Origin: Dehalococcoidia bacterium
GTDB taxonomy: Bacteria > Chloroflexota > Dehalococcoidia > Lucifugimonadales > Lucifugimonadaceae
Direction: 5' to 3'
NCBI GenBank assembly: GCA_965261995.1
Contig: CBDHEH010000001.1
Span: 6,036 to 70,035, forward strand
Length of the DNA stretch: 64,000 bases
The notes under the pieces are model-generated. The model searched no databases. It was not told where the DNA came from and saw only the letters and a program-made list of their open reading frames with translations. The position numbers and the translations under genes were made by a program. Position 1 is the first letter of the stretch. Every line of letters starts with the position of its first letter. Of the stretch, positions 9,273-38,453 are shown in pieces.

Positions 9273-10091
9273 ATGGGTATCGTGTATGTCCTGACCAACC
9301 CCGCTATGGAAGGGCTGGTCAAGATTGGCAAAACCAGTCGATCAGCCTTAGAGAATCGTATGGGCGCACTCTATTCGACAGGAGTGCCGTTTCCGTTCAA
9401 TTGCGAAATCGCGGTTGAGGTTGATGACGATACAACTGTTGAGAGTGCCCTGCACAAAGCGTTTGACAAGTATAGAGTCAACCCTCGACGCGAGTTCTTT
9501 GAGGTCGATCCTGAACACATCAAGCCCTTGATTGCCTTGATGGGGAAGGAAATATCGCTAGATATTGATGCTGTGGACATTGATCCTGAATCGCAAGAAG
9601 CTGGTGATGACTATCAGCGCAAAAGGGCAACGCCGTCGCATTTTGAGTTCTTGGATCCTTTAGCCGAGGACCTCGACGATAGATATGGCATCCGTATACG
9701 CAGGCGCCGCAAAAAACAACCCCATTGGGATTTCCACTCTGGTGTCAAAGACATTCGGTACAACATCGGATTCCACTACGACGGTCTCAAAGTGCGTGTG
9801 CGATTATCGTTCCACCGGCGTGATGTTGAATTCAACCGGAAGTTATTCGATCGAATCAGTCCACGCCGATCGGAGATCGAAAACGCATTAGGCGAAGATT
9901 TGGAGTGGGAACGTGTTACCCGCTTCAAAAATAGCATGATAACGGCTTATGCTCCCGGCTCATTGGACGGCTCTGAAGATGAACTGGAAGACGCTAGAAC
10001 TTGGCTAGTGTCAACCACAGTTAAATTCAACGAAGTATTCGGGCCGCTTCTGGAAAAACTGGTGCCGCAGGTGGAAACCGAGTTAAGTTAG
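9273..10091 (+). CDS. GIY-YIG/T5orf172 (MUG113-like) domain protein with a DUF4268-like C-terminal domain
   Basis: The N-terminus GIVYVLTNPAMEGLVKIGKTS...RMGALYSTGVPFPF...FDKYRVNPRREFFEV is T5orf172-like. The C-terminal LEWERVTRFKNSMI region is DUF4268-like. A GGAGGA SD sits 7 nt upstream. Confidence 0.7.
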   Translation: MGIVYVLTNPAMEGLVKIGKTSRSALENRMGALYSTGVPFPFNCEIAVEVDDDTTVESALHKAFDKYRVNPRREFFEVDPEHIKPLIALMGKEISLDIDAVDIDPESQEAGDDYQRKRATPSHFEFLDPLAEDLDDRYGIRIRRRRKKQPHWDFHSGVKDIRYNIGFHYDGLKVRVRLSFHRRDVEFNRKLFDRISPRRSEIENALGEDLEWERVTRFKNSMITAYAPGSLDGSEDELEDARTWLVSTTVKFNEVFGPLLEKLVPQVETELS

Positions 10092-10117
10092 CGTCACATC
10101 ACAACTACTTATGGTTC

Positions 10118-10155
10118 CCCCTCACCCTAACCCTCTCCCGCAAAGGGCGGAGGAT
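10118..10155. repeat. REP-like repeat, family A copy (right arm degenerate)
   Basis: CCCCTCACCCTAACCCTCTCCCGCAAAGGGCGGAGG, between the convergent stops of the 9273 gene and vapC. Confidence 0.75.
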
Positions 10156-10174
10156 GTGTTGTGGGGTTTCGGAC

Positions 10175-10579
10175 CTAAATTGTGAGCAGTTCCAAGTTTG
10201 GGATGCCATCAAAATCGTTGTCGTCCGCGACCAAGGGACAATTTAGCAGGAGCGCCGTGGCGGCAATCCATGCGTCGGCTAGGTGTAATCTCCGTCCTCG
10301 TTGCTCACGTTGAGCGCGAATACGAGCCGCAATCTCGACCAATTCGGAGTTTGGCCAGATAACCGTGTATTGGCCTAGGTGGGCCGTCAACTCGTTCATT
10401 CGGCGCCCCTCCCAGCCGGCAAGATACGCCCCATACAACCGCTCTTCCAGCGTCTGGAACGAGATGAACGCTCTATTGCCTTCCAGGAATTCTGCGTACG
10501 CGTTCGATTTCATCCGATCGTTGAACAGGATGGACACCACACTTGTGTCAACCACGACCAACGCCGATTCTGCGTTCAT
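10175..10579 (-). CDS. vapC: PIN-domain ribonuclease toxin (VapC family)
   Basis: 134 aa. VVVDTSVV (first acidic residue), a C-terminal LVADDNDFDGI, and ADAWIAATAL fit the PIN fold. Confidence 0.85.
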   Translation of the reverse strand: MNAESALVVVDTSVVSILFNDRMKSNAYAEFLEGNRAFISFQTLEERLYGAYLAGWEGRRMNELTAHLGQYTVIWPNSELVEIAARIRAQREQRGRRLHLADAWIAATALLLNCPLVADDNDFDGIPNLELLTI

Positions 10580-11229
10580 GTATCCCGTCTGCCCTTGCGA
10601 ATTATCTCGTTGAACTTATCAACGTCGAAAGGTTCGCTGGCTACAACGACGTTGTCGCGGCGGAATACCTTAGGGTTTGGATCGTTCAAAACAGCATCCA
10701 AATCGAATGGTTCGGTCCGAGAATGAGTTTGACTTTTTCGTTCGGCATCGGTTTTGACGTTCGTCGTTTTTTCTGAGCGTCGGATTTCGATGGATTGACT
10801 GTTGCTCGGCGAAGTGATTATTACGACATCTACATCGTCCGACAGACCTTTACCGATTTCGTCGATTTCAGCTTTGAAGGTTGCAGACATTTTGACAGTC
10901 CCTCCGCCGGAACCATTGGTGAGATGAAACAGTGCCTGCACAGCCCTCGCGTTTGGCTGGTCCAGGGGGGTATAGAAATAAGGGTTGGGTGACAGCTCCC
11001 ACTCGGTGGTCGCCGAGCCTTCGGAACCACCAACTAAACGTAGTTTGGTTGGTTCAATCACAGGTCGCGCTGAGTGACCCAATGAAGATTCAGTGCCCTC
11101 GGAATCCCGAACCAACATACTGATTGCGCGTTGAAGATGCGAGATAGTACTCGCTAAATCTTCGAACGACACACCTTGTTCGTCGATCGACGGACCCTCA
11201 AAGGTCAATCTGAGTTTGTTCTCGTGCAA
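10576..11229 (-). CDS. Hypothetical protein translationally coupled to vapC (atypically large putative antitoxin/partner)
   Basis: 217 aa. TTG start with an AGGAA SD 6 nt upstream. Its stop overlaps the vapC ATG (ATGA). The C-terminus carries a duplicated EPFD[LV]D motif. No family recognised. Confidence 0.55.
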   Translation of the reverse strand: MHENKLRLTFEGPSIDEQGVSFEDLASTISHLQRAISMLVRDSEGTESSLGHSARPVIEPTKLRLVGGSEGSATTEWELSPNPYFYTPLDQPNARAVQALFHLTNGSGGGTVKMSATFKAEIDEIGKGLSDDVDVVIITSPSNSQSIEIRRSEKTTNVKTDAERKSQTHSRTEPFDLDAVLNDPNPKVFRRDNVVVASEPFDVDKFNEIIRKGRRDT

Positions 11230-30536: not shown

Positions 30537-31715
30537 TTACTGTCCAGAGAATGTGCCTTTTAGCCAGCTCCAGATGCCATTGTCGCTGCCGTTGTGTGCC
30601 GACCGCGCTCCGTACGAAACATCATTTTCGACGATGACGGGATCGAGTGCCCGGTCGTCGGTGGCACGCATTGTGTCGCCGAGTTTTCGGACAAGGTCTT
30701 TCTGTTCGGTGGTAAGCGAACGCGGCGTTACCACGGCGAATTGGATGATTTGGTCGCCGCGCGGTCCGTCGTTGCGGAGCCGCGGCACGCCCAATCCCGT
30801 GAGCACCCTCTGGTTGCCCGTTTGAACGCCGGGTTCGATTCTGACCGTTTTGTCGTCCTCCAATGTGGGGACGGTGATATCTCCACCGAGCATTGCCGTT
30901 ACGACGTTTAATTCTGCACGGATGAGGACATCATTGCCGCTACGGGTGAAGACGCGGTCCGGCTCAACGTGCACTCGAACGTAAAGGTCACCAGCTTGAC
31001 CGCCGAGTTCACCAACATCACCGTGACCCCGCATTACGATGCGGTTGCCGTCGTCGACTCCCGAGGGGATGTCGATCGAGATCTTGCGACGATTGTTGGC
31101 GACACCGGTAGCGTTGCATTGGACACATGCGCGGTCGACTCGGGTTCCGATGCCGCGGCAAGTGGAACATTCGCCGATCTGTTCAAAGTTACCGAACAAC
31201 GTTCGTTGCGCGCGGCGTACCTTTCCGTTGCCGTTACATGTTTGGCACGTCGTCTTTTTGCTCCCGGGTTCACCGCGTGATCCGCTGCATCGAGAACAGA
31301 TTTCACGGCGCATGACATCGGTTTCGCGGCTGGTACCGAATATTGCGTCGCGGAACGAAATGCTCAATGCGAGCTCGACGTCTCGCCCGCGGCGGACGCG
31401 TGTGCCCGAGGCACCACCGAAGAACGATTCGAATATATCGCCGAATCCGCCAAAGTCGCTGAAACCTTCGAAGCCATTGCCAGCGTTGCCGTTGACGCCT
31501 TGGTGACCGAAGCGATCGTAACGAGCGCGGCTCTCCGAATCGCTGAGAACTTGGTACGCTTCGTTGATCTCCTTGAAGCGTTCGGTCGCGCCCGCTTCCC
31601 GGTTTCGATCCGGGTGGTACTGCAAAGCCATCCGACGAAATGCTTTTTTGATATCTTCCTCGTTTGCGGAGCGAGGAATTTCAAGCACCTCGTAGTAGTC
31701 GCGCTTTTCGCTCAT
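30537..31715 (-). CDS. dnaJ: Chaperone DnaJ
   Basis: J domain DYYEVLEI...YHPDRN, a G/F region, and four CxxCxGxG-type zinc motifs. Confidence 0.95.
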   Translation of the reverse strand: MSEKRDYYEVLEIPRSANEEDIKKAFRRMALQYHPDRNREAGATERFKEINEAYQVLSDSESRARYDRFGHQGVNGNAGNGFEGFSDFGGFGDIFESFFGGASGTRVRRGRDVELALSISFRDAIFGTSRETDVMRREICSRCSGSRGEPGSKKTTCQTCNGNGKVRRAQRTLFGNFEQIGECSTCRGIGTRVDRACVQCNATGVANNRRKISIDIPSGVDDGNRIVMRGHGDVGELGGQAGDLYVRVHVEPDRVFTRSGNDVLIRAELNVVTAMLGGDITVPTLEDDKTVRIEPGVQTGNQRVLTGLGVPRLRNDGPRGDQIIQFAVVTPRSLTTEQKDLVRKLGDTMRATDDRALDPVIVENDVSYGARSAHNGSDNGIWSWLKGTFSGQ

Positions 31716-32976: not shown

Positions 32977-33705
32977 TCAACCGGGTCTTGGCACCTTAGA
33001 CGAATGTATCGCGGTGATTTGAGCCCAACATTGTTCAGGACCGGTAGCTGACCACGGCCGCGTCAATCCGACTCGCAGGTATAGCTCTGGAATTCTCGAG
33101 ATCCTGCCATTGATCTCAGATTCAATCGCTTGGTGAGAATTTCCAGCCGCACATCGCTCCGTAACATAAGTTGCCAACGCCAAGTCATTGACCGCCCATC
33201 TGACGTAACGGGCTTCAGATTGGTCACGAAACGAAAGGCGGAGAGCCGGTTTTTCAGGATCTTCGATCCGTAATTCGATGCTTGATGAAATGGGAATGAT
33301 TGTTCCCAGTGATCGTGTCTCTGAGCCGGGCGGGACAAATCTACCGTTTCTGATGAATCCATCGAAAATATCCGAAACGCTCGGAAACGTTGTGCAAACT
33401 AATGCACGAAGCCATTCCGAATCGTTGGCGTGACGAACCACATTCATTCGTCGGCGATAAACGAAATCCTCAATGTGTGGTGGTGTCTTATCGACTTTGG
33501 GCTCGCCGAAAAATTCAACGACTGAACCCGGCCCAACATTAACCCCGTCGTCCATTTTCAGATCCGCGCGCCTCACACCGGCCGCGGATCCAGGTTCTGG
33601 CCTCCAGGTAAAACCATCGGGATCAACGCCTGCAACGCAAACCCGGTCACCACCCATCCGCGTGAGATCGGTGACCACGATATGAACAGGGGTTGATTGC
33701 CTCAT
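32977..33705 (-). CDS. Uncharacterised 242-aa protein, third gene of the DUF488 operon
   Basis: MRQSTPVHIVVTDLTRMGGDRVCVAGVDPDGFTWRPEP... It looks beta-rich, with no catalytic or binding motif I can recognise. The ATG is 3 nt after the stop of the upstream DUF488 gene. Confidence 0.6.
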   Translation of the reverse strand: MRQSTPVHIVVTDLTRMGGDRVCVAGVDPDGFTWRPEPGSAAGVRRADLKMDDGVNVGPGSVVEFFGEPKVDKTPPHIEDFVYRRRMNVVRHANDSEWLRALVCTTFPSVSDIFDGFIRNGRFVPPGSETRSLGTIIPISSSIELRIEDPEKPALRLSFRDQSEARYVRWAVNDLALATYVTERCAAGNSHQAIESEINGRISRIPELYLRVGLTRPWSATGPEQCWAQITAIHSSKVPRPG

Positions 33706-33708
33706 AAC

Positions 33709-34179
33709 TCACAAGTGAACGATTTCACATTCTGGGAAGCGTTGCTTTTTGATTTGCTCGGCTGCCAGCCTGCGATGGCACCGTTCAGGTTCAACCTCGC
33801 TACAGAGGAGCACTAATCCTTTGTCGATTAATTGTTCATCGACCGCTTCAATCGCTCCTCGTTCTTCCAACAGATCCAAATATCTCTCGGAATAGAAGGC
33901 CCACGCCTCGTCGCGGCAGGCCTTGCGCTTCGAGGCTTCTCTGTAGGTTTTGAGCATCTCAGAAGTAGGAGCCAAATCCGGGAGTTCTACGTAGTTCCAA
34001 TTGGGAAATCCTTCAAGATTTGCAATGAACCAGCCAAGGTCTATGCCTACAGTGAACCGCGCGAGTTGACTTGTATTGCTGCGCCGAATGTCCGCGAGAA
34101 CTGACGCTTCCGTTTCTCGCAAAAGTTCAAAAAACTGTTGGGCTGTCTTCCGCGTGAAACCAATCGTGTAAATTTTCAT
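33709..34179 (-). CDS. DUF488 family protein (paralog 2, YeaO-like subtype)
   Basis: MKIYTIGFTRKTAQQFFELL...LADIRR...LLCSEVEPERCHRRLAAE. ATG 34179 lies 4 nt after the upstream stop. Confidence 0.75.
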   Translation of the reverse strand: MKIYTIGFTRKTAQQFFELLRETEASVLADIRRSNTSQLARFTVGIDLGWFIANLEGFPNWNYVELPDLAPTSEMLKTYREASKRKACRDEAWAFYSERYLDLLEERGAIEAVDEQLIDKGLVLLCSEVEPERCHRRLAAEQIKKQRFPECEIVHL

Positions 34180-34183
34180 GGGA

Positions 34184-34711
34184 TCAGAACAAGGAAATCG
34201 GCGCACCGACATCTGCACGTTTTGTTCGGTGAGCAAGTCCGTCACCGCGGATGTGCAAGAGTTCGTAACCTGCCTCTTCAAGTGAAGGTCCTAACAAATG
34301 TTGACGATGGCATTTCGCTGGGTTTTCCTCTGAGCACATTATTGCGACGCGCCGATCAAACGCGATGGCACATAAATCACCGATTGCGTCATCGTACAAC
34401 GGGTCGGCTTCCTCACCAAACTCACCGTTCCCACGCCTGATGTCGTACGATCGCAACATGTCAACGAATTCCGGTTTCCCATCCCATGCCGCTCCGCTCG
34501 GCATACCGCCGAGCCGATCACCCATGTAGAGGTATTCGATCCCACGCTTGGGCAACCAAGCGTTAAGAGTACGCTGGTCTGCATATTTCGCGAATCTCGA
34601 CCACGGGTTAGAACGCACGTCAACGACGGTTTCGATTTGATGCTGTTCCAACAACCGAACGAACGTATCGAAATCGTGATTACTATGGCCGATTGTGAAG
34701 ATCTCGTTCAT
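34184..34711 (-). CDS. DUF488 family protein (paralog 1)
   Basis: MNEIFTIGHSNHDFDTFVRLLEQHQIETVVDVRSNPWSRF...IMCSEENPAKCHRQHLL. ATG 34711 is used; the track ORF opens at TTG 34738. Confidence 0.75.
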   Translation of the reverse strand: MNEIFTIGHSNHDFDTFVRLLEQHQIETVVDVRSNPWSRFAKYADQRTLNAWLPKRGIEYLYMGDRLGGMPSGAAWDGKPEFVDMLRSYDIRRGNGEFGEEADPLYDDAIGDLCAIAFDRRVAIMCSEENPAKCHRQHLLGPSLEEAGYELLHIRGDGLAHRTKRADVGAPISLF

Positions 34712-34825
34712 GGGTAGGATTCTACACCTGACGGGCAATTCGAACTACCGGCAAGTTCTCCATATAAAAGTACACTCGATATCGGAACTCACCCTCATCC
34801 TTACGATCGGAGCCGGACACGAAAC

Positions 34826-35470
34826 ATGGAGATATCTCTTAACGGACAAAAAGCATTCCTAGTGAAGACTGCCTCCGGGACGGTAATTTGCGATCCAGCG
34901 AACGAGGAGGAAGCGACGTTCGTGCCTTCGTCCGCCGCGGATGACACGGTCGTGACTGCGGTTTTGAGAAGTCGGCCGGCAAATTCAAGTTTCCGGAAGT
35001 CGGGGCGATTTGGCGGATCGGATGTGATTTCGCATCCGGGGGAGTATGAGATCGGGGATTTGGGCTTGCGGGGTATCGCTTTGCCGGTAGAAGACGAGGG
35101 GAAGAAAACTGTAACTTCGTTCCGGATAGATGCGGATGGATTGGCGACCTATATGTTAGGTCGGCCCCAAGCATCTCCGGATTCCCGGACAGTTCAGATC
35201 ATCGGCCATGTTGATGTCTTGTTGTTGGACGCGGCGCGGCTCGAGATGGACGTCAAGGAGCTTTCGTCGCTGATTGGAGCGTTGGACCCTTCGCTTGTCT
35301 TGGCAAATGGGCTTGATGCTGAGAGCGGAGAGCCTAACCCGATGTTGAAGTCGCTGCGCGGCGAGATGGGTGGGGATCAGACGAGTCAGGAGCCGCAGCC
35401 ACGCGTCAGCGTAACTAGGAGCAACCTGCCGGCCGATAGGCAGTTGATTGTATTGCGCCCACGCGCATAG
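34826..35470 (+). CDS. Hypothetical protein, possibly a degenerate MBL-fold (UPF0173-like) protein lacking HxHxDH
   Basis: The N-terminus MEISLNGQKAFLVKTASGTVICDP mimics MBL-fold starts, but no His cluster follows. Confidence 0.35.
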   Translation: MEISLNGQKAFLVKTASGTVICDPANEEEATFVPSSAADDTVVTAVLRSRPANSSFRKSGRFGGSDVISHPGEYEIGDLGLRGIALPVEDEGKKTVTSFRIDADGLATYMLGRPQASPDSRTVQIIGHVDVLLLDAARLEMDVKELSSLIGALDPSLVLANGLDAESGEPNPMLKSLRGEMGGDQTSQEPQPRVSVTRSNLPADRQLIVLRPRA

Positions 35471-35562: not shown

Positions 35563-36966
35563 CTAGACCTGCTCTTCGCCGGCCTTTCGGCTGTGCTGGT
35601 ATCCGAAGTACCCTGCGATACCGAGAATGACGAGCACGAGGATGATGGCGAGCGGCAGAGTTGCGTTGAAACCACCGCCGGTCTCTTCAGGCTCGAGCGT
35701 TGCGGTTGGTGGTATCGCGGTTGCTGTAGGTGGAACCGAGGTCGCGGTTGGTGGCACCGAGGTCGCGGTCGGCGGCACGGAAGTTGCCGTAGGTTCTGGC
35801 GTCGCTGTCGGTGGTACCGGTGTCGGTGGGATTGGCGTCGGCGTGGGTGGCACGGGTGTCGGCGGGATTGGCGTCGCCGAGGGTGGCACCGGTGTCGGCG
35901 GGATTGGCGTAGCGGTCGGTTCGGGCGTCGCAGTTGGCGGTACCGGTGTCGGAGTCGGTGGAACCGGCGTCGGAGTTGGCGGCGGTGGGGTAGCCGTTGG
36001 TTCGGGTGTAGGTGTTGGAGGTACTGGCGTCGGAGTGGGTGGTATTGGTGTCGCCGTCGGTTCTGGAGTCGCGGTCGGTGAGATCGAAGGGAAGAATAGA
36101 CGTATATCTGCAGGTTGTCCCGAGGTGAAAATGCTCGGTGTCTCAGCCTCAAGCGCCTTGTTCGGGTCTGTCGGGTCACCCTTGTCGATCAGGTAGAACT
36201 TGATCGGGGCACCGTTCAAGCTTTCGTCGGTGGTGTCGACAGCCAGATTGTATGTGCCTTCAAAAACGGTAACGTTGTTCGTCCGCAGGGAAGCTCCAAC
36301 AACTGCGAAGATTTGGTAACCGTCAGGCACAAGACCTTCCGATGTAAATGCCTGGCCGGAGAATAGTGTCACCGTTGAGTCGACCGGGTCCGGCTGTCCG
36401 ACCGGAGCTACCGGGCCACCGGCCGGCAGCATCGGGAAGTCGATGATGATATCGCGAAAATCTGGAAAGCCGAATTCACAGGTTAGGCAGAAGTTGCCAT
36501 CATCGCCGATTAGCGCATAGTAAGAGTTAGTGGTGGCTTCAACCGTTCCGTTGAGCACGAACTTGATCTCGTTTCCGACGAGTTCGCTCGGCGGGTTCAC
36601 GGTGAGGTCTTCAAAGCCGTTAGCATCCGCGGTCCCTTGGCCAACTGCGACGGGTTCAGAAACCCAGTCGCCGATCTTGGCCGTGAGTTGCATCCCTTCT
36701 ACACCTAGTGGGGAGTTTTGAACCGTTACCCAACCGTTGAAGATGACAGCCGCTAGGTTTGGCGGCAACTGTGTCTGGGCTTGGACATCGTTTCGCGTGT
36801 CCACGAATGCTGTCGTCACCCCAATCAGAGCGACCGCTACGATTGCGAGCGCTAATGCCCACTTGTGCACGTTTTGAGCACCAGGTCGTTTTTGGATGCC
36901 CATACTCTCAGGCGCGGTCGCTGCGCGGTCGGTACGGATCGCGTTACGCTCGGTGTCATCGTGCAT
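35563..36966 (-). CDS. Envelope protein P1: N-terminal anchor, two beta-sandwich-like modules, Pro/Thr repeat stalk, C-terminal TM anchor
   Basis: 467 aa, paralogous to the next gene. About 130 aa of (P-T-A/P-x)n repeats. It ends GGGFNATLPLAIILVLVILGIAGYFGYQHSRKAGEEQV. Confidence 0.75.
   Translation of the reverse strand: MHDDTERNAIRTDRAATAPESMGIQKRPGAQNVHKWALALAIVAVALIGVTTAFVDTRNDVQAQTQLPPNLAAVIFNGWVTVQNSPLGVEGMQLTAKIGDWVSEPVAVGQGTADANGFEDLTVNPPSELVGNEIKFVLNGTVEATTNSYYALIGDDGNFCLTCEFGFPDFRDIIIDFPMLPAGGPVAPVGQPDPVDSTVTLFSGQAFTSEGLVPDGYQIFAVVGASLRTNNVTVFEGTYNLAVDTTDESLNGAPIKFYLIDKGDPTDPNKALEAETPSIFTSGQPADIRLFFPSISPTATPEPTATPIPPTPTPVPPTPTPEPTATPPPPTPTPVPPTPTPVPPTATPEPTATPIPPTPVPPSATPIPPTPVPPTPTPIPPTPVPPTATPEPTATSVPPTATSVPPTATSVPPTATAIPPTATLEPEETGGGFNATLPLAIILVLVILGIAGYFGYQHSRKAGEEQV
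35708..35791 (-). repeat. Tandem 21-nt coding repeat (4 units, encoding TSVPPTA-type heptads) inside P1
   Basis: The units GGTGGTATCGCGGTTGCTGTA, GGTGGAACCGAGGTCGCGGTT, GGTGGCACCGAGGTCGCGGTC and GGCGGCACGGAAGTTGCCGTA were read directly. They sit in a wider PT-coding tract at about 35671-36069. Confidence 0.85.
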
Positions 36967-36977
36967 CTGGGATCACC

Positions 36978-38453
36978 TCATGATTCCTGATTCAGGGCGT
37001 AGTCATCTTCAGGTTCTAAAAGCATGGATTCGTCTTTGCGAGACACCGCAATGCGCCACGCAAAGATGCTCAATAAAGCAACGATGCCCAATGGCATAGT
37101 CGCTTCCATCGATCCGTTTTGGTTCGGCGACGCGTTGCAGAAACCAGAGCCGTTCCCGCCATCGGTTGGCGGTGTTGCGTCACCATTGCCACCGGGAACG
37201 AACTGCGTCGGGCTCGCGATTATTGATACCGCCTGTGTCGCTTCGCCAGCAGTGTCCGTTGGTCTCGGCGTTCTCGTGGGCTCAGGTGTATTCGTCGCAG
37301 TGGGAACGTCGGTTGGCGTCGGCGATGCGAATACCGTCGGCGTAGGAGGCACGGGTGTGTTCGTAGGCGTCGGTATGGGCGTCTCGGTAGGAGTAGGTGT
37401 TGGTGTCACCGTTGGGGTATCCGTCGGCAACGGCGTGGCCGTGTGCGTCGGGGTTGGTGTAACCGTTGGGGTATGAGTTGCGGTTGGTGAAGGCGTTATC
37501 GTCGGAGTGTATGTAGGAGTAGCGGTCGGCGTGAGCGTCGGCAGCAGGTCTGGGAACACCAAGGACACGTTTTCGAAATTGGCACCACTAACCATCGCGC
37601 CGGGCGGTGACAGAGCTTTCAGGAATCTCGGCGCACCGGAAGGGTCGTTTCGGTCTACCAGATAAAAGACCACGGGCGCATTACGGTATTTCTTGTCGGT
37701 GACATTGACAGTGATGAAATATTCACCGCCGAACACCTCGATGTTTTGCGATCGAAAGTCTTCGCCGACGGTGACGTAGATTTCCGATCCGTCGGGCAAG
37801 ACGCCGCGCGGCGTACGCGCTCGCCCCGAGAAAAATGCTGGGGTTAGGACTTCCGGCGACGGTGTCCAAGTGGGCGTCACCGTAGGCGTTGGCTCTGGCA
37901 AATTAGGAAAGTCGAGATCCAGTTCCCTCAAGATCGGGAACGTCCAAGTGCAACCGCCGCAAATCTCGCCGGAAAACTCATTGATTACCGCGTACCAGTC
38001 TGACGAAGTGGACAGCACGGTATCTTCCAACAAGAACTCGATTTGCGACCCGAAGAGGTCAAGCTTAGGATCTGGCGCAACTACTAGGTGTGCGTATCCA
38101 GACGGTCGGTTTGGCAATGAGCCGACGACGACCGGCGCGGATTCGTACTTAGTCCCAATGCGGGCAGTGATTTTGAACCCGGAGTATTCCGGTTGTTCGC
38201 CGTTGATAGTCACGTAGCCGTTGAACACGATCGCTGGAAATGTCGGTGGGACGCCGGGGTTTTGCGCTGCGAGTTGCTGTCCATCACGATTCGCTAACGC
38301 GATTAGGATGACGGCGACCATTGCCGCACCTGCCAACACTGCGCTCCAGCTCCGTAGAGACGTGAACAAGTTGCGTGCAGACACAGGCATGCATAGCTTC
38401 CCAATAAGAATTGTGCGATTTTCCATAGCGAAAATCCTAGGGATTCGATGCAA
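36978..38453 (-). CDS. Envelope protein P2 (paralog of P1)
   Basis: 491 aa with the same module order as P1. The PT stalk lies at about 37254-37541. It ends GNGSGFCNASPNQNGSMEATMPLGIVALLSIFAWRIAVSRKDES... The exact start is uncertain (M1, M10 or M22). Confidence 0.75.
   Translation of the reverse strand: MHRIPRIFAMENRTILIGKLCMPVSARNLFTSLRSWSAVLAGAAMVAVILIALANRDGQQLAAQNPGVPPTFPAIVFNGYVTINGEQPEYSGFKITARIGTKYESAPVVVGSLPNRPSGYAHLVVAPDPKLDLFGSQIEFLLEDTVLSTSSDWYAVINEFSGEICGGCTWTFPILRELDLDFPNLPEPTPTVTPTWTPSPEVLTPAFFSGRARTPRGVLPDGSEIYVTVGEDFRSQNIEVFGGEYFITVNVTDKKYRNAPVVFYLVDRNDPSGAPRFLKALSPPGAMVSGANFENVSLVFPDLLPTLTPTATPTYTPTITPSPTATHTPTVTPTPTHTATPLPTDTPTVTPTPTPTETPIPTPTNTPVPPTPTVFASPTPTDVPTATNTPEPTRTPRPTDTAGEATQAVSIIASPTQFVPGGNGDATPPTDGGNGSGFCNASPNQNGSMEATMPLGIVALLSIFAWRIAVSRKDESMLLEPEDDYALNQES

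Follow-up and report, generated by a model that had tools for sequence, protein, structure and literature searches.

A divergent gene cassette of DUF488, DUF488-N3a and DuOB families, probably of PDC-M45 type, beside hrcA-dnaJ in a Dehalococcoidia genome

Gene content and protein families of the cassette

The DNA analyzed here is a 64,000-nt stretch of contig CBDHEH010000001.1 from a Dehalococcoidia bacterium (hereafter the window, meaning the whole stretch), and its element of interest is a cassette of three genes on the minus strand, named A, B and C in their 5' to 3' order. Gene A (34184..34711) encodes the longer, canonical DUF488 paralog, gene B (33709..34179) a short, 156-aa DUF488 paralog of the DUF488-N3a subclade (hereafter N3a), and gene C (32977..33705) a 242-aa protein of the DuOB (predicted dual OB-fold) family. 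A preliminary description of this DNA had reported three packed open reading frames (ORFs) with spacers of 4 and 3 nt, and its coordinates were confirmed. The TGA stop of gene A (34186-34184) is separated by 4 nt (34180..34183) from the ATG of gene B at 34179, and the TGA stop of gene B (33711-33709) by 3 nt (33706..33708) from the ATG of gene C at 33705, both spacers being read straight from the minus strand. The length of 184 aa given there for protein A is possible from an alternative upstream TTG at 34738, but public gene calls start at the ATG and give 175 aa. In homologous loci the A/B junction is a gap of 2-4 nt or an overlap of 4 nt, and a 4-nt overlap is frequent among relatives at the B/C junction. 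In most homologous loci the junctions are tight or overlap, and this, together with natural fusions of A and B, makes a fixed stoichiometry of the three products plausible.

Proteins A and B both passed the Pfam DUF488 model PF04343 (67.5 bits, 2.1e-18 and 62.5 bits, 7.5e-17, respectively; gathering threshold 22.2), and the family hallmarks reported earlier for the two are present. The signature TxG(H/F), D-x-R strand and C-x-E...P..C-H-R is complete in each, counted on the translations as T6-I-G-H9, D31-V-R33, C126-S-E128 and C134-H-R136 in protein A, and as T5-I-G-F8, D30-I-R32, C126-S-E128 and C134-H-R136 in protein B. These residues fall in columns conserved to 90% or more among 33 A-B fusion proteins, protein A retaining the TxGH, DVRS, CxE and CHR residues. 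The proposal that the pair represents different subtypes also stood: protein B alone passed the DUF488-N3a model PF22751 (37.5 bits, 3.4e-9; gathering threshold 27), while protein A scored 14.8 bits and is no DUF488-N3a member, indicating true paralogs of different subtypes. Single-chain fusions of the two occur at loci L038 and L049, where ~25 linker residues join a complete A domain to a complete B domain. A protein search gave ~50 clusters of such fusions (90% identity clustering), ranging from 98% to 31% identity to the L038 protein, with the D-V-R, C-x-E and C-H-R residues kept in both halves. The fusions argue that the two DUF488 paralogs act jointly and, with the motifs kept on both sides, they point to an obligate heteromer in which neither subunit is obviously a dead copy.

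Protein C had been regarded as unassignable, a view that was overturned by its match to the Pfam model PF22557 (DuOB, "dual OB-containing domain") at 33.7 bits (gathering threshold 27), with residues 20-233 aligned to model positions 13-210 of 210. Most of its 104 homologs in a collection of 5.8 billion proteins were annotated with PF22557, and some bear the NCBI name "dual OB domain-containing protein". A DuOB profile search of 1.84 billion representatives gave 1,754 clusters at E <= 1e-3. Structure prediction followed by Foldseek, as proposed earlier, succeeded in its first part, yielding a confident, beta-rich AlphaFold2 (AF2) model (predicted local distance difference test, pLDDT, 95.2; predicted template modelling score, pTM, 0.92), but no structure, solved or viral, reached E <= 1e-3 in Foldseek. 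The closest analogies were tandem-OB binders of single-stranded DNA (ssDNA), namely Oxytricha TEBP-alpha, Teb1, LEF-3, CST and RecO. The protein had no match among PDB sequences, and its relation to SSB, RPA or TEBP-type proteins is one of fold resemblance only, not of membership. DuOB is predicted to share two tandem beta-barrels with such binders of ssDNA and DNA ends (TEBP-alpha, Teb1, CST, LEF-3, RecO and SSB/RPA), and differs from them by an invariant polar constellation of its own (PHxED, RSxGT and others). Across 46 diverse homologs, 15 residues were invariant: C23, R35, P76-H77-x-E79-D80, S132, T135, D161, D174-L175, R211, G213, R216 and Q229.

Fusion proteins were also found for DuOB. 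In Candidatus Syntrophoarchaeum it forms one chain with a complete RecQ helicase (DEAD, Helicase_C, RecQ_Zn_bind, RQC and HRDC), encoded directly after both DUF488 genes (L074 7432-10134; L075 7444-10134) and near genes for a Dam-like methyltransferase, a HerA-like ATPase and an XPG/FEN-type nuclease. Other fusion partners were HRDC, RQC+HRDC, DEAD+Helicase_C, RQC+HEAT, HEAT repeats and a glyoxalase/bleomycin-resistance domain. RQC and HRDC are DNA-structure-binding modules of RecQ enzymes, and their fusion to DuOB makes DNA its most likely ligand; the product of gene C is accordingly a predicted ssDNA- or junction-recognition subunit.

The preliminary description had also taken the trio for an undescribed system, which proved wrong, as the cassette corresponds to the PADLOC entry PDC-M45 and the DuOB and DUF488-N3a families have dedicated Pfam models. 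Protein A matched PDC-M45B at 7e-35 and protein B matched PDC-M45C at 2.1e-42. The DuOB of an Accumulibacter cassette (L070) matched PDC-M45A at 2.5e-132 and that of a Moraxella plasmid (L077) at 5e-36, indicating that PDC-M45A is the DuOB family, and thus the family of protein C. Twelve DuOBs from Chloroflexota, Bacillota and archaea gave no usable PDC-M45A match, that of L056 being weak at 0.0023. PDCs are phage-defence candidates, chosen for having at least one instance embedded in BREX, DISARM or type I restriction-modification (RM) systems (Payne et al., bioRxiv 10.1101/2024.01.29.577857). Three genes make up PDC-M45 (cassette CAS_00153; 68 RefSeq instances); it stands outside the seven validated systems and is itself prediction only (bioRxiv 10.1101/2024.01.29.577857).

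The window trio and PDC-M45 are both tight three-gene units of the same three families. PDC-M45 has DuOB first (FAM_01974 >> FAM_00888 >> FAM_01897), as have L044, L047, L054, L070, L080, L081 and L082, whereas the window order is long DUF488 > N3a > DuOB, i.e., B-type > C-type > A-type instead of A > B > C. The window copy further differs in a DuOB that is diverged beyond the M45A models and has no C-terminal tail, and in its chromosomal position among housekeeping genes, with no embedding in a defence system. The window trio is very probably a divergent, gene-order-permuted Chloroflexota-type member of the DuOB + DUF488 + DUF488-N3a system, or PDC-M45, and PADLOC itself would probably not call it. 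The dedicated Pfam models show that the system has also been delineated by domain analysis. Of this DuOB / DUF488-N3 system, the window holds a DuOB that passes PF22557 and an N3a protein that passes PF22751, while its protein A looks, from its motifs, like a canonical, active-type DUF488 and not like an obviously inactive partner. The delineation is reportedly due to Burroughs and Aravind in 2023, and is said to concern a RapZ-C/DUF488/DUF4326 clade with predicted DNA-end processing; such a role in conflict systems is in agreement with the domain fusions seen here. The system is therefore known already by computation (Pfam, PADLOC), with its chemistry and role predicted only.

Conservation and genomic context

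Nine look-ups of genomic context were started from DuOB or N3a homologs, and in each of them the three families adjoined one another, at identities to the window proteins down to 31–33% and in unrelated surroundings. A genome scan was made on one genome per species with a profile of a 13-sequence DuOB subset, which biases it towards the Chloroflexota branch. It gave 57 loci, mostly from Anaerolineae and Thermomicrobiales, and also from Ktedonobacteria, Bacillota, Chthonomonadales (Armatimonadota), Acetothermia, Methanotrichaceae and Bathyarchaeia. The loci were scored with purpose-built hidden Markov models for the three families, and 43 had enough flanking DNA to be assessed. The neighbourhood survey proposed earlier found the trio conserved, both DUF488 types adjoining DuOB in 40 of these 43 loci. 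The arrangement was A > B > C in 30 loci, C > A > B in three, A-B divergent from C in five, and A fused to B in two, with junctions across homologous loci that were typically gaps of 2–4 nt or overlaps of 4 nt. The phyletic distribution of the cassette was patchy. Mean pairwise identity (37 loci, 659 locus pairs) was 55.7% for B, 48.4% for A and 42.0% for C; by this measure, the N3a subunit is the most constrained of the three and DuOB the most variable.

The cassette has two lifestyles, being found on plasmids and in defence loci in Proteobacteria, and at a stable, long-kept chromosomal site by hrcA-dnaJ in the window lineage. In Allochromatium (plasmid pAt1, L080 4990-8695) and Accumulibacter (L070 4636-7438), a PcfJ-domain gene followed by DuOB and two DUF488 genes lies inside type III CRISPR-Cas loci, among cas1, csx16, csm6 and RAMP genes, with an SSB gene upstream in L070. 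On an Agrobacterium plasmid the cassette adjoins CBASS, TcmP/DUF5131 and an integrase, on small IncFII plasmids it has a NotI-type RM system and toxin-antitoxin genes as neighbours, and on a 10-kb Acinetobacter plasmid it is a main cargo. DuOB was found on 18 plasmids in total, 14 of which were typed non-mobilizable, and a search of 50,697 phage records and of BFVD gave no homolog of it. The earlier suggestion to look for defence islands was thus rewarded by the proteobacterial copies, but not in Chloroflexota, where the flanks gave few defence matches. The Pfam-annotated contexts of the Chloroflexota and other survey loci were mostly housekeeping. In Meiothermus, the trio directly adjoins an Endo_dU gene, with a RecO-like gene at a distance of a few kb.

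A plasmid variant consists of DuOB > DUF488-N3a > DUF4326, or mSLOG-DUF4326 (L077 5351-7049; L078 4998-6686; L079 5992-7655; L083 5989-7652), and occurs on small plasmids of Acinetobacter, Klebsiella, Citrobacter, Salmonella and Moraxella. It shares DuOB, the N3a-type DUF488 and the tight packing with the window trio, but the long DUF488 is swapped for the sister family DUF4326, sometimes with a minimal SLOG domain. In Moraxella, the DUF4326 is fused to the minimal SLOG domain, and genes for SSB, an AlkB-like 2OG-Fe(II) oxygenase and a methyltransferase lie upstream. In the literature, DUF4326 is predicted to act on ribose-linked phosphates.

DUF488 genes were also seen alone. About 1.3 kb upstream of the trio of L006, the gene of an HhH-GPD DNA glycosylase overlaps a third, solo DUF488 of canonical type by 4 nt (L006 4441-5648). 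On the Escherichia coli IncX5 plasmid NZ_CP086392.1 (L076 4158-7432), a solo N3a-like DUF488 gene, its product matching PDC-M45C at 1.1e-67, immediately follows the gene of a UvrA paralog of 883 aa, and the two belong to an island for formaldehyde detoxification (frmR, fghA, alcohol dehydrogenase). This type of pairing suggests a link to the repair of DNA adducts or crosslinks. Plasmids with N3a-like DUF488 genes numbered 122; the majority came from enterobacteria (Enterobacter, Citrobacter, Klebsiella, Escherichia and Salmonella), and most were typed conjugative.

Proposed mechanism and alternative explanations

Proteins A and B would form an obligate heteromeric enzyme with the D-x-R, C-x-E and C-H-R signature in both subunits. 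DuOB, through its two predicted OB barrels, would bring this pair to ssDNA, DNA ends or junctions, where the pair would remove or transfer a phosphate or phospho-sugar group, i.e., process DNA ends or lesions. DuOB, the fastest-evolving of the three, would be the specificity subunit. The link to DNA draws on the SSB genes that adjoin the cassette and on the genes for the HhH-GPD glycosylase, the UvrA paralog and Endo_dU near the trio or near solo DUF488 genes. The phosphate or phospho-sugar step rests on a reported superfamily placement, on weak Foldseek matches and on the replacement of the long DUF488 by DUF4326. DUF488 has reportedly been placed in the rhodanese-phosphatase superfamily. It would share a Rossmann-like alpha/beta domain with the RapZ C-terminal domain and the cysteine phosphatases of that superfamily, but the classical C-X5-R loop of the phosphatases is not evident in it, its motifs being C-x-E...C-H-R. 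In line with this placement, Foldseek with a model of the A-B fusion gave marginal matches to RapZ (5o5o; E 3e-3) and the KAP phosphatase (1fpz; 3.7e-2), and to the diphthine-synthase-like methylases CbiL, SonM and PH0725 (~1e-2), all ranked below artefactual KaiC alignments that are meaningless (root-mean-square deviation of 16–18 Å) and head the list.

The mechanism, with DuOB targeting DNA and the DUF488 heteromer processing sugar-phosphate, is put forward tentatively, with doubt slightly prevailing. The explanation as a whole, that of a PDC-M45-type system made of a DNA-directed DUF488 heteromer and DuOB, is the best one found and comes close to an even prospect. As to biological role, the system most likely serves conflict or genome maintenance in an accessory capacity. 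This agrees with the nucleic-acid-directed accessory module for repair, modification or defence envisaged in the preliminary description, which fits the fusions of DuOB to RecQ, HRDC and RQC modules as well as the defence-island and plasmid contexts.

Several observations weigh against this explanation. Protein C matched no PADLOC model at E <= 1. In the window's DuOB, as in the three proteins closest to it (P0002-P0004), the chain ends directly after the last beta-strand, so that this clade is without the C-terminal tail "GIYTFPDYLxGxxFADF" conserved in nearly all other members, and reading the sequence by eye revealed no remnant of the tail in any frame downstream of the window's gene C. The analogies to tandem-OB ssDNA binders (template modelling score 0.24–0.37, E >= 2e-3) are a likeness at the level of the fold only, and OB folds bind RNA, oligosaccharides and proteins as well. 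The invariant polar set of DuOB (C, H, E, D, R, S, T) is richer than a passive binder needs, so that DuOB itself may be catalytic. AF2 folded each domain of a natural A-B fusion well, with a domain arrangement that was not confident (pTM 0.52), and hence no heterodimer interface can be claimed. The families of A, B and C had no relatives in the PDB, profile searches included. Among 132 ORFs directly flanking the Chloroflexota and other survey loci there was no recurrent partner, and PADLOC matches were few, scattered and mostly generic, leaving a defence role unsupported in Chloroflexota. Finally, the literature searched held no functional study of DUF488, DuOB or PDC-M45; among 32 papers mentioning DUF488 none has it in the title, and the sole abstract mention concerns Lactobacillus metabolites. 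E. coli YeaO belongs to the DUF488 family.

That the genes stand together by chance, or are decaying and without joint function, has a probability close to nil. Nothing was found in favour of chance adjacency, which is contradicted by the gene fusions and by a trio that stays complete in four gene orders and in different phyla, and decay does not agree with window proteins that retain all invariant residues. A rather unlikely but substantial alternative is a dedicated DNA-repair module, housekeeping-like in the window lineage and with no part in phage defence. DuOB would then recognize ssDNA gaps or blocked ends, and the DUF488 heteromer would clear away phosphate or sugar groups that block 3' or 5' ends following glycosylase, lyase or crosslink damage. 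Such a module would suit a locus that is stable and syntenic between hrcA-dnaJ and a ribosomal-protein cluster in two genomes, with flanking proteins 79–80% identical and gene A conserved as strongly as these, and the mostly housekeeping contexts in Chloroflexota, with no defence enrichment. The solo DUF488 overlapping the glycosylase gene, the N3a-like DUF488 by the UvrA paralog in the formaldehyde island, Endo_dU and RecO near the Meiothermus trio, and the DuOB fusions to RecQ-type modules and the glyoxalase/bleomycin-resistance domain point the same way. It is at odds, however, with the patchy phyletic distribution and plasmid carriage, with the proteobacterial copies in type III CRISPR loci or beside CBASS or RM systems, with a trio GC that remains below host GC, and with the fast divergence of DuOB (53% identity against 79% for the flanks).

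Another alternative is a function in mobile-element establishment or anti-defence, in which the proteins protect the incoming ssDNA of the element against host restriction, or process it, while the element conjugates or begins to replicate, and the chromosomal copies are domesticated remnants. This is very unlikely. Small plasmids do carry the cassette, next to ParA, Rep and toxin-antitoxin genes, with SSB and PcfJ-domain genes directly upstream; in Rhodovastum it comes after a run of small hypothetical genes and before a giant SNF2-related protein, and SLOG-type domains like that of the Moraxella DUF4326 fusion are discussed in the literature in an anti-Avs context. Yet 14 of the 18 DuOB-carrying plasmids were typed non-mobilizable, neither the phage records nor BFVD held a DuOB homolog, and most instances are chromosomal with no sign of an adjacent mobile element. 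The chances are slimmer still for an RNA-directed system, with DuOB as a binder of single-stranded RNA and the DUF488 pair as an enzyme that heals or modifies RNA ends (2',3'-cyclic, 3'- or 2'-phosphate), comparable to the small-RNA-binding C-terminal domain of RapZ. The Foldseek matches of DuOB include CspA, eIF5A, the anticodon-binding domain of LysRS and ribosomal proteins, there is the weak RapZ match, and a published summary of the RapZ-C/DUF488/DUF4326 clade is said to mention RNA termini, but the RecQ helicase, RQC and HRDC modules to which DuOB was independently fused, and the SSB, glycosylase and UvrA-type neighbours, all point to DNA.

A further, unlikely reading is that the Chloroflexota cassette is no defence system and encodes a vertically kept three-subunit DNA-processing enzyme, whose chemistry would have no characterized precedent. 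Its DUF488 heteromer, of rhodanese-phosphatase fold, would act on ssDNA or DNA ends by removing or transferring an adduct of phospho-sugar or ADP-ribose type, and C23, R35, H77, E79, D80, S132, T135, D161, D174, R211 and R216 would form a catalytic or adduct-reading center of DuOB, which would then be more than a passive OB binder. If true, this would be the first biochemical function for DUF488, a large bacterial and archaeal family for which the literature searched gave no function. The comparative data yield testable predictions for the PDC-M45-type system, namely an obligate heteromer from the A-B fusions and a DNA-targeting subunit from the RecQ/HRDC/RQC fusions. Solving the chemistry would confirm or drop the PADLOC candidate, give a function to DUF488 and DUF4326, and maybe reveal a new activity in DNA-end or adduct processing. 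The window copy belongs to a divergent branch, one that would escape the defence finders now in use; to specialists in defence-system genomics the locus will be unsurprising, yet it is a well-defined entry to DUF488 biochemistry.

Composition, age and surroundings of the locus

The window trio lies between a divergent Lactamase_B_3 gene (34826-35470, plus strand) and hrcA-dnaJ-prmA-rsmE, with a ribosomal-protein/rpoA cluster a few kb away, in a host genome of ~2.8–2.9 Mb. The 114 nt between gene A and the Lactamase_B_3 gene (34712..34825) are presumed, from position only, to be the promoter region of the operon; a promoter scan of these 114 nt found no sigma-70-type consensus, and between gene C and hrcA there was no terminator signal above chance. 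Lactamase_B_3 was considered as a fourth component and rejected, as it is adjacent in two syntenic genomes only and has no PADLOC match.

The block had been judged AT-rich by eye, and the composition check does set the trio apart from its flanks. Its GC content was 0.514, compared to 0.562 for the window (z = -3.1), with 1.45% of equal-length segments as low, and GC at third codon positions was 0.48–0.55 against 0.645 ± 0.047 for long ORFs. The trio also fell below host GC in most genomes compared. Horizontal acquisition, which had been proposed on this account, is in keeping with the deviating composition but cannot have been recent. The arrangement and position of the trio are repeated in the relative L004, where HrcA is 80% identical to that of the window, DnaJ 79%, protein A 79%, protein B 68% and protein C 53%. 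The shared locus, and a gene A as conserved as its flanks, indicate vertical inheritance since the window and L004 genomes split, and a recent transfer was rejected on these grounds. The low GC of the trio persists in both genomes.

Some other features of the window were recorded. The DnaJ encoded at 30537-31715 belongs to a 90%-identity cluster that holds "Geodia barretti" (sponge) entries and metagenome-assembled genome entries named "Chloroflexi bacterium", indicating that the window comes from a sponge symbiont and that the sponge assembly includes symbiont contigs. The sole other window stretch as GC-poor as the trio, at 9273-11229, looks like a small accessory or toxin-antitoxin islet. 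It encodes a T5orf172/MUG113 + DUF4268 protein (9273-10091, plus strand), a PIN-domain toxin (10175-10579, minus strand) and, directly upstream of the toxin, a 217-aa protein with no family assigned (10576-11229, minus strand). On the minus strand, 35563-36966 and 36978-38453 encode a tandem pair of paralogous proteins (467 and 491 aa), and local GC reaches 0.64 there, with strong skew. They had no Pfam match. The two have a globular region in common and are otherwise built alike, with a hydrophobic segment at the N-terminus, a long repeat tract rich in Pro and Thr ("PTPTPVPPTATPEPTAT...") and a hydrophobic anchor at the C-terminus. Their orthologs occupy the same place in L004.

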